DNA from: a virus
Taxonomy: Duplodnaviria > Caudoviricetes
IMG/VR virus record: IMGVR_UViG_3300038443_002533
Span: 160,001-224,000 of that record
Length of the DNA: 64,000 nucleotides
Direction: 5' to 3' (one strand)
Position 1 is the stretch's first letter; each line of letters starts with the position of its first letter. The notes under the pieces were generated by a model. It did not search any database. It saw nothing but the letters and a program-made list of their open reading frames with translations, and was not told where the DNA came from. A program made the position numbers and the translations under genes. Positions 2,533 through 7,393 of the stretch are shown here, piece by piece.

Positions 2533-2689
2533 GGGCATGTAGCTCAGTGATAGAGCACCGTCCATTACCCTTGGGGTCGCTGGTTCGAGTCCAGCCTGGG
2601 GAGTATGCGAATACTCGCTGGTAGCTCAGATGGTTAGAGCACAAGGCTTGCTTAGACGGAGGTCGTGGGTTTGATCCCTGCCATGTCCA
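2533..2689 (+). ncRNA. tRNA-like RNA C: Ala-type outer tRNA with a nested circularly permuted tRNA
   Basis: GGGCATG/CATGTCC-A (G3.U70); CCGTC/GACGG; inner CCTTG/CAAGG, T arm, GCGA-capped acceptor stem and D arm. Confidence 0.8.
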
Positions 2690-2698
2690 TCAAGAATT

Positions 2699-2807
2699 CT
2701 TAATAAGTGGTAAAGTAGATCAACGCGGAGAACCGACGCGCTACAAGGGATACCTCGCTCTGGTTGGTTCACTGGAACGAAGGAGTTTGACCCTGCCACT
2801 TATTAAG
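2699..2807 (+). ncRNA. 109-nt RNA element closed by a 14-bp terminal stem
   Basis: CTTAATAAGTGGTA (2699-2712) pairs with TGCCACTTATTAAG (2794-2807); internal hairpins. Confidence 0.55.
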
Positions 2808-2826
2808 TGTTTTTAAGTTTCACGTA

Positions 2827-2964
2827 GGGCGTTTAGCTCAGTTGGTAGAGCACGGCTAAAGGTGGGCACCGACAAACCCACACCAGCTTAACAGGCTGGG
2901 GCCGAAAGGCAGTCACCATTCATTAAAGCCGAGGTCATGTGTTCGAATCACGTAACGTCCACCA
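2827..2964 (+). ncRNA. tRNA-like RNA E: Ala-type acceptor with a 69-nt structured insert in the anticodon loop
   Basis: GGGCGTT/AACGTCC-A-CCA (G3.U70); canonical D and T arms; CGGCT/AGCCG stem enclosing 2858-2926. Confidence 0.8.
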
Positions 2965-2973
2965 AGTTTCAAA

Positions 2974-3138
2974 GGGTGTGTAGCTCAGCTGGTAGAGCGT
3001 AGTCATGCAAGATTGTGGGGGTTCGAGTCCCCCCATTCTCTCGATTGGGAATGTGGCGGAATTGGTAGACGCGCCGTTCTAACGGACGGTTATCACATTA
3101 GGCTAAGGTCATGGGTTCAAATCCTGTCACATCCACCA
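2974..3138 (+). ncRNA. tRNA-like RNA F: Ala-type outer tRNA with a nested permuted Leu-like tRNA (96-nt insert)
   Basis: GGGTGTG/CACATCC-A-CCA (G3.U70); TAGTC/GGCTA; inner T arm, CATTCTC/GGGAATG capped stem and Leu-type D arm. Confidence 0.8.
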
Positions 3139-3156
3139 AGTTTCAAGCAGTACCGT

Positions 3157-3234
3157 AGGGGAGTCGCCAAGTTGGTCCAAGGCCCCGGATTTTGATTCCG
3201 GCATTCGAAGGTTCGAATCCTTCCTCCTCTGCCA
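3157..3234 (+). tRNA. tRNA-Gln(UUG)
   Basis: Canonical cloverleaf, CCGGA-TTTTGAT-TCCGG, encoded CCA. Confidence 0.93.
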
Positions 3235-3315
3235 GATTTTCGTAGGACTGTTTGATGAACAGAGTAAAATCATCATGGTAGAGATACCACTTACTAGGCA
3301 CTAGGAGAATGTACC

Positions 3316-3780
3316 ATGGCTGGATTTGTGAAATTGATGTCGAATGAAAACCTGCCGGACGCAAGTCCGTTCAAAGGCTATCAGCTGATCAGCTTACCGG
3401 ACGCTGGCAAGGTCGAATTCAAACGTAATGAGCGAGGTCTCGATACGTGTGTGATCTACACCCCGGAGCATGATCCAGAAGAATACCTGATGTACGGCAA
3501 TGCGTATATCCTGAGCGACTCGGGTAAAACCATTGCTTCCCATGGCACCAACGTGCCCTGCGCATTGGAACCGGGTCAAGAGATCAATGACGCTAAGGTG
3601 GCGGTTAGCGCACTGCTTACGCTGGAACCTGACGATCTGAAAGCGGCCCTTTGCCATCTGGTTGCAACTAAGCCGGAAACCATCCGTGTCATGGGTGGCG
3701 TCATAGCCAATTTGGCGCGGGCCGGAAACGAAGCTGCTATTTACTCAATTCGTCCCGCGGTCGAACACATCAGCACGTAA
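3316..3780 (+). CDS. hypothetical phage protein inside the RNA cluster
   Basis: 154-aa ORF with AGGAG RBS. Confidence 0.8.
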   Translation: MAGFVKLMSNENLPDASPFKGYQLISLPDAGKVEFKRNERGLDTCVIYTPEHDPEEYLMYGNAYILSDSGKTIASHGTNVPCALEPGQEINDAKVAVSALLTLEPDDLKAALCHLVATKPETIRVMGGVIANLARAGNEAAIYSIRPAVEHIST

Positions 3781-3791
3781 CACCGATCAAT

Positions 3792-3950
3792 GCCCAAGTC
3801 AGTTATTCCCTCCAACCGATTTCGTCATGAAAGATGGCGCATCTGGCTAAAAGTGAATTCCAAGGCCTGACTAGGGCGCCCCTTTGGCTTTATTAGTTGA
3901 AAGAGGTGTTGTGCCACCACACGCCGTCAATCGAGTAGACTAATAAAGCC
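3792..3950 (+). ncRNA. two adjacent stem-closed RNA elements
   Basis: 3792-3802/3867-3877 (11 bp, one mismatch) and 3886-3897/3939-3950 (12 bp perfect). Confidence 0.45.
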
Positions 3951-3956
3951 TTCCCT

Positions 3957-4032
3957 TCCCCGATAGCTCAGCCGGTAGAGCGACGGACTGTTAATCCGCA
4001 GGTCCCTGGTTCGAATCCAGGTCGGGGAGCCA
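3957..4032 (+). tRNA. tRNA-Asn(GUU)
   Basis: Canonical cloverleaf, ACGGA-CTGTTAA-TCCGC, encoded CCA. Confidence 0.96.
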
Positions 4033-4034
4033 CG

Positions 4035-4893
4035 AACATAAAAGCTGGAATCTAAGCTAGTAGAGTTATCCTTTAACTTGTGCTGGGGTTGTGTTGTTGA
4101 CACTTTACAACTAAGGCTTGGGTTCCGCCTTTTGTGTTTAACTGTCTTTGGGTTTGACTTGGATCGACCGCGAGTCGCAATTACCATACGAGCGATTACG
4201 ATTATCGAAGAACATATTGGCCTGACTCACAAGTCACCTGGTCAAACCCACCCTTTTTCAGAGGACGCACGTGAGGTCGTGCAGGCTTGAGTATCAAGTC
4301 TAGAATGGGCGTGGCTCCTTACACCTACGGGGATACTTAAGGGAGTCGAGGGAAGTGAGATCTCATCAATCTCCACAATGTGGGTGCAACCCACCCCAAT
4401 ACTCGCACACAGGAACGCCGTGGAAATCGGTGAACAACCAGGAGATGAGCCTGGTCCTCTGAGCTATTCTAAATAAAGGTACTGATGAGCCGTGGAAGTC
4501 GGCCCCTGTGCATACAGGCAAGGTTGCAAACCCTTCGAAACATCTCTTGCGCTTCAAGATACAACGAGATGTATACCAATGGACTTAACAGTGGTAGCCG
4601 TTGCTCTTGTCACCTCCGGGGTCTTGATGGGAGTCTAGTAGCGTTTCTGACACGAGCGCTGAAACTGTACGACTGGTTCAACCCTGTCGGCGTCTGTCAA
4701 ACGTCGTGGAGAGAGGATCAGTAAGTTGTACAACGCGTAAGCTGTGCCGCACGCTCCTAGTGAGCGGGTTCAGTGAGAAGCTAGGTCGTGCAAGACCAAG
4801 TTGTGCAGCCATTGTGAGATTGCGTCGGTTTGGCCAGACTGGCGCAGTTGTATCGGTGTGAGGCGGGGGAGGGGTGCAAAACTCTCCCCCGTT
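4035..4893 (+). ncRNA. putative large structured non-coding RNA (~860 nt) downstream of tRNA-Asn
   Basis: No credible ORF; 9-bp long-range stem 4150-4158/4241-4249; many hairpins; ends in a GC-rich hairpin followed by a T-rich tract. Confidence 0.6.
4478..4577 (+). ncRNA. hammerhead ribozyme-like element (type I topology, expanded stem II region)
   Basis: GGTA-CTGATGA...GAAA-CATCTC/GAGATG-TA-TACC: full catalytic core with a GUA cleavage triplet. Confidence 0.65.
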
Positions 4894-4931
4894 TCTTATT
4901 CTTTTTATGCCGTCAAAATCTAGGAGTAACT

Positions 4932-5669
4932 ATGTGGAACTTTTTCAAACGACTGTTTGGCGGTGGTAAACGACAAGAACCCCAGATCGATAAGCCGAGC
5001 GGATCGGCGGGCCGCTGCACACCGTACATGACACCGCTCAGTTCCATCAAACCGAAGTCACCGGAGCCCGTTAAAGAAGATCTGAAGCGCCCCAACGGCC
5101 AATGGGAAGAAACGGAAAACCAACGGCCGCCCGAAAGCGTATGGCAACAAAGCTTGCGGCGCGAAATCAATAAGGTTGAAAAACGTCAACGCTACAATGA
5201 AATTTTGAGCCAAGCTGGGATGGATGTTCGCGCCAGGCGATTCGAAGCCGTGCAACAGTCCGTCGATCGGGTTCGCCAAGAAGCACTCAACTCCGCCACC
5301 CCCCAGATGAGTCGACCGCAATTACCGCCCCATGCGTTGACGGATTCGGCGCGCCTGGATTTGGTCCGAAGAGCAACGCTGAGCACCATGTCCCAGCGCC
5401 CAGGATTACAAGCTGGGCTAGACGCGGTTCAGCGTGACATCGAAGCGCGCCGTCGACAGAACGAAGAAGACGAACGTCGTCGCCGTGAAGCCGATGATGA
5501 AGACCGTCGCCGTCGTAACAACGATGACACATTGAATTTGTTGGTAGGCTTATCCTCGATAATTTCTGACACCGTATCCTCATCGTCTGATTCCAGCCCC
5601 AGCTCGGATCCGTTCAGCGGCGGCGGTGGTTCCTTTGACGGCGGTGGTGCTTCTGGAGATTGGTCATGA
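4932..5669 (+). CDS. hypothetical protein with Ser/Gly-rich C-terminal tail
   Basis: AGGAG RBS before ATG 4932; ends FSGGGGSFDGGGASGDWS. Confidence 0.85.
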   Translation: MWNFFKRLFGGGKRQEPQIDKPSGSAGRCTPYMTPLSSIKPKSPEPVKEDLKRPNGQWEETENQRPPESVWQQSLRREINKVEKRQRYNEILSQAGMDVRARRFEAVQQSVDRVRQEALNSATPQMSRPQLPPHALTDSARLDLVRRATLSTMSQRPGLQAGLDAVQRDIEARRRQNEEDERRRREADDEDRRRRNNDDTLNLLVGLSSIISDTVSSSSDSSPSSDPFSGGGGSFDGGGASGDWS

Positions 5670-6739: not shown

Positions 6740-6823
6740 TAGTATGTAGTACGTAGTAGGTAGTGCATGATTTATCGGTGGAGATGGTGGGATCGAAAAC
6801 TCCATTCACCATCGAGAAAAATC

Positions 6824-7393
6824 ATGAAGAAAATTGCATCTTTGTTTCAACGTAACTATGACGGCGATCGTCAAGTGCGTAATGAAGTCGTTCCGGGTTC
6901 GGAATGGGTAATCCACGGCGAAGGGTATGCGACCCGTAAATGGGATGGCATGGCTATTAAGCTGGAGAACGCTCAGTTCTTTAAGCGTTATGATGCGAAG
7001 GCTGGCAGAACACCGCCCCCTGAATTCATTCCTGCCCAACCGGCGCCTGATCCACAAACTGGCCACTGGCCTGGTTGGGTGCCGTTGCAAGGGAAAGAAC
7101 TCAATCGCGTAGTAGCGGCGTATCAAGACAGCGGCATCACGGAAGACGGCACATTCGAATTCTGTGGACCGACGATTGGTACCCGCCATGGCGCCAACCC
7201 TGAACGGCTCACCAAGCACATCCTGGTGCCCCACGGGCAAGACATCCTGGCCGACTGTCCGCGTGACTTCGATGGGCTCAAAGCCTATCTGGCGAATGCG
7301 GATATCGAAGGGGTGGTGTGGTGGCATCCGGATGGTCGTAAGGTCAAGATCAAAGCAGCTGATTTTGGCCTCGTCAGGCACGCAGTAATCTGA
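6824..7393 (+). CDS. ATP-dependent RNA ligase (RLIG1/C12orf29, DUF5565-like)
   Basis: Ligase motifs RKWDG (I), EFCG (III), EGVVW (IV), KIK (V); HILVPHG motif. Confidence 0.7.
   Translation: MKKIASLFQRNYDGDRQVRNEVVPGSEWVIHGEGYATRKWDGMAIKLENAQFFKRYDAKAGRTPPPEFIPAQPAPDPQTGHWPGWVPLQGKELNRVVAAYQDSGITEDGTFEFCGPTIGTRHGANPERLTKHILVPHGQDILADCPRDFDGLKAYLANADIEGVVWWHPDGRKVKIKAADFGLVRHAVI

Follow-up and report, generated by a model that had tools for sequence, protein, structure and literature searches.

Background

No other small ribozyme has been studied as thoroughly as the hammerhead, in which helix II has been regarded as a plain hairpin or, in one recent case, as a pseudoknot. Type I hammerheads of bacteria and phages (RF00163; PMC3088659) combine a CUGAUGA ... 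GAA core, an A15.1-U16.1 pair and an NUH cleavage site with an open stem I and a closed stem III, and are frequent in the intergenic regions of phages. Natural hammerheads are known to use, for helix II, either a short hairpin that makes a loop-bulge contact, a tail pseudoknot (PMC3088659) or the arrangement of the pseudoknot hammerhead, PK-HHR (PMC12192606). As related in PMC12192606, the PK-HHR corresponds to RAGATH-1 (RF03152; Weinberg et al. 2015), with a structure by Zhan et al. (2024), and its helix II is minimal and is substituted by pairing of the loop with a conserved extra hairpin upstream of stem I. Stem II and stem III stack coaxially in hammerheads (PMC10085705), and fast natural hammerheads depend on a contact between stem I and stem II (PMC3088659, PMC12192606). 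In engineered allosteric hammerheads, which have aptamers grafted onto a stem, a folded domain is placed where helix II normally ends, and its folding could gate catalysis (PMC12192606).

The element described here occupies positions 4478-4577 on the + strand of the window, the 64,000-nt stretch of phage DNA that was analyzed, and is very probably a self-cleaving ribozyme, a type I hammerhead whose structural variant is uncatalogued. It shares the core, the A15.1-U16.1 pair, the NUH site, the open stem I, the closed stem III and the intergenic position of the type I hammerheads, but its helix II is a junction of two conserved hairpins and a variable one rather than a single hairpin. Unlike in those ribozymes, neither a loop II/stem I bulge contact nor a tail pseudoknot can be recognized, and the element falls below every Rfam hammerhead threshold. 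Judged by sequence, it has every hammerhead feature except a plain helix II and a recognizable stem I/stem II contact. The PK-HHR is comparable in that it, too, is a natural hammerhead in which another tertiary device replaces the ordinary helix II and an A-rich stretch lies 5' of stem I. However, the substitute proposed here lies wholly between G10.1 and C11.1. The conserved upstream hairpin of the PK-HHR has no conserved equivalent, since the window hairpin at 4438-4456 is absent from the related phage G007, and the score is far below the PK-HHR threshold. The comparison with engineered allosteric hammerheads extends to the position of the folded domain and its potential to gate catalysis; those constructs are artificial, whereas the domain described here is natural and has no known or indicated ligand or partner.

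New features relative to these systems appear to be a 14-sequence family that includes a cultured phage, a rule of two hairpins plus a variable one, and a covarying loop-loop pair. No report of a branched helix II, of T-loops in hammerheads or of jumbo-phage hammerheads was found in the literature covered; most subscription journals lay outside this coverage, so the result is no proof of novelty. The family would represent a third natural helix II solution, a branched and internally braced domain.

Genomic context and the hammerhead motif

The source record is a 272-kb phage with terminal repeats that encodes a phiKZ-type major capsid protein. The motif lies in an ORF-free stretch approximately 450 nt 3' of a tRNA-Asn gene and is read in the direction of the tRNA cluster. 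Neighboring genes are on the same strand, and a staphylococcal-nuclease homologue is located upstream on the opposite strand. The preliminary description had listed stems, core segments, hairpins and a cleavage triplet for this motif, and a check of the letters located every one of them on the + strand where it had been placed (Table 1). In the window copy, stem I consists of 4 bp and stem III of 7 bp plus 3, and none of the 13 core nucleotides departs from the canonical form. The RNAfold minimum-energy structure of 4470-4585 is exactly this fold (-24.8 kcal/mol), with a stability no greater than that of shuffled sequences (z = -0.04).

Table 1 Features of the predicted hammerhead and its surroundings (window positions unless a contig is named)
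Feature	Position	Strand	Sequence or remark
Stem I, 5' strand	4478-4481	+	GGUA; pairs with 4574-4577
Core C3-U4-G5-A6-U7-G8-A9	4482-4488	+	CUGAUGA; invariant in all family members
Hairpin 1	4489-4503	+	GCCG (4489-4492)/CGGC (4500-4503), loop UGGAAGU; G4489 is G10.1
Loop 1, position 3	4495	+	G4495; proposed tertiary partner of C4531 (covariation)
Hairpin 2	4505-4518	+	CCUGU (4505-4509), loop GCAU, ACAGG (4514-4518); variable middle element
Hairpin 3	4520-4535	+	AAGG (4520-4523), loop UUGCAAAC, CCUU (4532-4535)
Loop 3, last base	4531	+	C4531; proposed tertiary partner of G4495 (covariation)
C11.1 and G12-A13-A14	4536-4539	+	C11.1 is C4536; invariant in all members
Second core part	4537-4540	+	GAAA
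Stem III	4540-4572	+	ACAUCUC ... GAGAUGU; includes CATCTC (4541-4546)/GAGATG (4566-4571)
15.1-16.1 pair	4540, 4572	+	A4540-U4572
Cleavage triplet	4571-4573	+	GTA; N17 is A4573, predicted scission 3' of A4573
Stem I, 3' strand	4574-4577	+	UACC; first bases of the predicted 3' product
Conserved structured RNA	4578-4895	+	~320 nt; the predicted cut would free it with a 5'-OH
Upstream hairpin	4380-4394		GUGGG-UGCAA-CCCAC
Upstream hairpin	4416-4430		GCCG-UGGAAAU-CGGU
Upstream hairpin	4438-4456		ACCAGG-AGAUGAG-CCUGGU
Long-stem-III member	L038:1305-1538		
Long-stem-III member	L042:7653-7923	-	
Long-stem-III member	L046:2830-3053		
Long-stem-III member	L065:2327-2592		

A loose hammerhead descriptor (the core with G10.1 and C11.1, at least 4 bp in stem I and at least 5 bp in stem III, and any N17 other than G) matches a single site in the entire 272-kb genome, both strands included, and this is the 4478-4577 motif. 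Since the descriptor also matches 4 of 300 dinucleotide-shuffled windows, the motif by itself is only mildly improbable and suggestive only; the case for a real hammerhead comes instead from conservation and covariation in relatives. Neither the window nor any of the eight related loci tested scores at or above the gathering threshold of an Rfam hammerhead model. The best sub-threshold hammerhead, and the sole ribozyme match at relaxed thresholds, is RAGATH-1 (20.5 bits against a threshold of 56.3). Standard models therefore miss the branched-stem-II variant, and surveys based on them would overlook it.

At gathering thresholds, Rfam identifies four tRNA matches only in the window. A tRNA-like array at 2600-3140 gives sub-threshold or split tRNA matches together with a weak YrlA-like match (2912-3025, 21.8 bits). 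Three further hairpins between 4380 and 4456, 5' of the hammerhead, resemble a second set of stem II hairpins that is devoid of a catalytic core; they are absent from G007, whose 5' flank differs in sequence.

In a region so rich in tRNA-shaped RNAs, 450 nt after tRNA-Asn, the hammerhead consensus could have been matched by chance in a decayed tRNA or tRNA-like gene of the phage tRNA cluster, a reading in keeping with the cloverleaf order of the three hairpins, with the shuffled windows that satisfy the descriptor and with the many windows scanned. We consider this highly improbable, given that the tRNA model has no match in 4400-4640 with E up to 10, that ARAGORN predicts no tRNA at the hammerhead site, and that compensatory conservation extends to 13 other sequences, many of which have no nearby tRNA gene. 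The stretch might also be protein-coding and its RNA motifs incidental, as an ATG-started ORF of 79 aa (4485-4724) overlaps the motif. This explanation is extremely improbable: the equivalent region of G007 is spanned by no + strand ORF (one stops within hairpin 1, and 180 nt separate it from the start of the next), and substitutions are paired across helices without third-codon-position bias.

A family of related elements in phiKZ-like phages

The same predicted hammerhead design is present in 13 other distinct sequences (14 counting the window). Most members are phiKZ-like phage contigs of 240-315 kb, and one is the cultured Burkholderia phage FLC9. A 271-kb relative of the source phage (G007), reached via its capsid protein (77% identity), carries a homologue after its own tRNA cluster. 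Compared to the window, G007 has unchanged CUGAUGA, G10.1, C11.1 and GAAA, and compensatory changes in stem I, hairpins 1 and 2 and stem III. Stem I changes from GGUA/UACC to CGUA/UACG (G-C to C-G), hairpin 1 from GCCG/CGGC to GUCG/CGAC, and stem III from ACAUCUC/GAGAUGU to ACGCUC/GAGCGU. Hairpin 2 changes from CCUGU/ACAGG to CCUAC/GUAGG in a compensatory manner (CCUAC-UUCG-GUAGG), as it does in metagenome contig L024 (CCUACU-AAU-AGUAGG). The cleavage triplet of G007 is the textbook GUC.

Pattern scans, which constrained the core and hairpin loops only and placed nothing on stems I and III or N17, returned ten IMG/VR contigs (nine of them further members, mostly 240-315 kb) and L024. In all ten IMG/VR matches, both stem I and stem III are complete and N17 is a base other than G. 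The scans also found two members in genome assemblies, one in a Thaumarchaeota MAG bin (L055), which is probably a mis-binned phage contig, and one in an isolate of Caballeronia arationis (L065). The latter, contig000098 of strain LMG 29324, is near-identical to the 279-kb phage contig behind L042, which suggests jumbo-phage DNA within the isolate assembly and hints at a Burkholderiaceae host. A blastn search identified the further copy in FLC9, where it is unannotated and begins immediately 3' of the stop codon of gp133. In this phage, gp133 and gp132 are separated by a gap of 500 nt (L052:3002-3508; LC667451.1 ~137440-137948, minus strand) that is also unannotated and contains the hammerhead and the conserved downstream RNA. 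Since FLC9 is cultured, cleavage and the role of the downstream RNA are accessible to ordinary genetics.

Pattern matches outside the family, in the metagenome collection and the much larger genome collection, lack hairpin 1 pairing and, apart from three loci, fail the descriptor. These three (L021, L025 and L051) pass the loose descriptor and were taken as chance matches. An exact 22-mer and a first narrow pattern matched nothing beyond G007, and blastn of 2800-5200 against GenBank phages recovered tRNAs only. A covariance model built from G007 alone (R1) recovers every member but places the 3' end in the wrong register for the window copy (4475-4565) and for the long-stem-III copies, so its alignment (A5) was excluded from the pair counts. 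Genome-wide searches with R1 gave one match each in the window's genome, G007, FLC9 and G010, and no match in G008 and G009, both of which are known carriers.

In the flanks that were retrieved, most family members lack a tRNA gene. In L038, L042, L046 and L065 (Table 1), stem III encloses a further folded insert of 110-155 nt, so that the predicted ribozyme is woven into a larger RNA in different ways among members. The insert of L046 faintly resembles the first domain of the RNA downstream of the window's hammerhead (GGAC.U.AC.GUGGUAG), with a score that 11 of 300 shuffles reach; the inserts of L038 and L042 have no homology to this domain.

Conservation and covariation of the core and helices

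All letters of the catalytic core, with CUGAUGA, GAA and both Cs, are unchanged across the 14 family members. Helices were parsed by script over 11 distinct sequences, since the variable length of stem III defeats MAFFT alignment of the 3' halves. Taken together, stems I and III and the conserved hairpins 1 and 3 have standard pairs in 96.8% of their cells. Random exchange of the 3' partners between sequences leaves 68% of cells paired, and none of 2000 shuffles reaches the observed value. Double changes are found in 13 of 17 pairs against 9.0 expected, a count reached by 1 of 2000 shuffles, although this control overstates independence because the family sequences are mutually related. The changes are, however, spread across several clearly separate lineages.

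Both helices flanking the predicted cleavage site contribute to this signal. Stem I is paired in 97.7% of cells, with double changes in all four pairs; each pair position is paired in 10-11 of the 11 sequences and has three pair types. Stem III is paired in 92.7% of cells, with double changes in 5/5 pairs and three to four pair types at each of positions 2-6. At 15.1-16.1, ten sequences have A-U and one has G-C. N17 is C in seven, A in three and U in one, and the consistent avoidance of G fits the NUH rule (PMC12192606). Hairpin 1 is paired in 11/11 sequences, with C-G/U-A and C-G/G-C exchanges, and hairpin 3 in 10-11/11, with four pair types at its outer pair.

These comparisons strengthen the view, first put forward from the window sequence, that the element has a type I core with an expanded stem II of three hairpins and a predicted cut after A4573. 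The doubt about activity that was attached to that view is much reduced, since the core is invariant, stems I and III covary, and the stem II module is itself conserved and covarying. We are highly confident that 4478-4577 is a genuine, selected hammerhead, and self-cleavage at 4573/4574 is predicted as the likely outcome. Alternatively, the fold could be kept for a structural or protein-binding role within a larger phage RNA, as a module that retains the hammerhead shape but does not cut, or cuts too slowly for cleavage to be its role. This finds some footing in the very short stem I, in the branched stem II, for which there is no tested precedent, in the tertiary contact between stems I and II that the searches did not find, and in the four members whose motif is embedded in a larger RNA by 110-155 nt inside stem III. 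Yet every catalytic nucleotide is invariant, N17 is never G, and A15.1-U16.1 is kept in 10/11 sequences. Such invariance is expected from selection for cleavage and would be unneeded in a purely architectural three-way junction, and we consider a non-cleaving module unlikely.

A branched stem II domain with a predicted loop-loop pair

Throughout the family, the stem II domain comprises two conserved hairpins with loops of 7-8 nt around a variable insert of 3-61 nt. Its order is G10.1, a 3-bp helix with loop UGNAAGU, an invariant C, the variable element, a 4-bp helix with loop 3, and C11.1. Loop 3 is UGNAANG in most members and UUGCAAAY in the subfamily of the window. The variable element is hairpin 2 in the window; L044 has only AAA at this place, and the FLC9 group has a long hairpin. 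The smallest members are L044, at 73 nt, and L041, at 76 nt. Neither G4489 nor C4536 varies, and the two could pair with each other; alternatively, G4489 could pair with C4503. This second pairing would place 33 nt between 11.1 and G12, an arrangement for which we know of no precedent.

Position 3 of loop 1 and the last base of loop 3 are Watson-Crick complementary in all 14 members, with three pair types: the window and L024 have G-C, G007 has A-U, and the eleven others, including L055 and L065, have C-G. These pair types imply at least two independent double substitutions. Loops 1 and 3 therefore most likely touch through at least one Watson-Crick pair, predicted to be G4495-C4531 in the window. 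The covarying pair constitutes a sharp and cheap structural prediction.

A G-C pair closes each of the two conserved loops, whose first and fifth positions are U and A. T-loops are pentanucleotide motifs in which U1 and A5 form a reverse Hoogsteen pair and position 3 is free to pair with an outside base (PMC4810234). Loops 1 and 3 resemble this motif in sequence, with the exception of loop 3 of FLC9 (GUAAAG), which has no leading U. Likewise, the 7-nt G-C-closed loops with U1 and A5 correspond to those of the tRNA elbow (Zhang and Ferre-D'Amare 2016, PMC4810234), and the hairpins follow cloverleaf order. The Watson-Crick covariation of loop 1 position 3 with the neighboring loop can be likened to the C56-G19 pair of the elbow, so that G4495-C4531 would be comparable to G19-C56. 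In contrast to tRNA, the element has no acceptor stem, anticodon or tRNA-model match. Moreover, in this comparison of sequences both of its loops are T-loop-like, whereas the elbow joins one T-loop and one D-loop.

Other partners for the loops were considered. No consistent pairing of the loops with the 5' or 3' flanks was found across members. For a pseudoknot between loop 1 and a flank, ACUU is present downstream in two members, and UUGC, CUUG or UGCA upstream in some, in inconsistent registers. The G-to-A change in loop 1 of G007 is compensated in loop 3 and uncompensated in the 5' flank. A pseudoknot with the flanks was rejected on these grounds. No contact between stem I and the stem II domain was identified; the conserved A-rich 5' flank may be a candidate for contacting stem I.

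The letters, their conservation, the covariation of the helices and of the loop-loop pair and the conserved downstream RNA are observed, whereas catalysis, the chemistry of the ends, the arrangement in space and what the cut is for are inferred. In the proposed model, a branched domain takes the place of helix II between two invariant bases, G10.1 (G4489) and C11.1 (C4536). Two U-G-N-A-A T-loop-like hairpins, separated by the variable hairpin, would touch through their loops in the manner of the D and T loops of tRNA. This contact would create a rigid cap that stands in for helix II, and it may also replace the usual contact between stem I and loop II. A more elaborate version, in which the T-loop-like pair is a tRNA-elbow-like or elbow-docking module and the element a naturally gated hammerhead, is a speculative extension that we doubt. 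If correct, cutting and release of the downstream RNA would depend on a partner that binds or remodels the module, which could be a tRNA, a phage tRNA-shaped RNA, a tRNA-binding protein or the downstream RNA itself.

The downstream RNA and the predicted cleavage products

Under the hammerhead model, the RNA would cut itself between A4573 and U4574. In type I hammerheads the ribozyme remains on the 5' fragment. Here, this upstream fragment would end in a 2',3'-cyclic phosphate, and a structured RNA of ~320 nt (4574 to about 4895) would be released with a 5'-hydroxyl. The downstream RNA ends in a strong hairpin that is like an intrinsic terminator (4860-4895), and the ~320 nt up to this terminator align with the regions 3' of the hammerheads in G007 and L024. 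RNAalifold predicts 93 pairs in this RNA, and 41 carry double changes. One of its predicted long-range helices joins AAGUUGUR to GCAGCC, a pair of motifs that recurs 3' of most family members, including FLC9. No Rfam family matches 4578-4895 at threshold. Release of such an RNA would be one more indication that giant phages shape their non-coding RNAs with ribozymes.

It had also been proposed that the cleavage ends link the element to end-healing enzymes of the phage. Pfam profiles detected no RtcB, no AAA_33-type polynucleotide kinase and no Rnl2-type ligase in the phage genome. An ORF at 6767-7393, 2.2 kb 3' of the hammerhead, has a weak RLIG1 domain (29.5 bits). A ligase of the RLIG1-like type would require a 5'-phosphate. 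Because these enzymes were undetected, nothing ties the RLIG1-like ligase or the staphylococcal-nuclease homologue to the ribozyme products, and most members have no nearby tRNA gene, the proposed link is unsupported. The RLIG1-like ligase was also tried as a search anchor and led to four unrelated small phages, none with a homologue of the RNA.

A rhizosphere metatranscriptome run (X2) contains a 220-nt contig that is 97.7% identical to the window and lies wholly on 4602-4821, within the predicted 3' product. This weakly hints at a stable 3' product, with which the contig is compatible; contigs cannot show ends, and RNA libraries can contain DNA. No X2 contig falls on 4048-4601 or 4822-5000, and as contigs cannot show absence, this is silent on the 5' fragment.

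The order of hammerhead, ~320-nt RNA, terminator and a gene beginning MW..RLFGGGK is the same in G007 and the window. The product of this gene (window 4932-5669; G007 L010:2586-3076) starts with MWNFFKRLFGGGK in the window and with MWQLLLRLFGGGK in G007. Pfam gives no match to this product, which carries a low-complexity acidic/serine tail, and the position of the gene 3' of the RNA is conserved.
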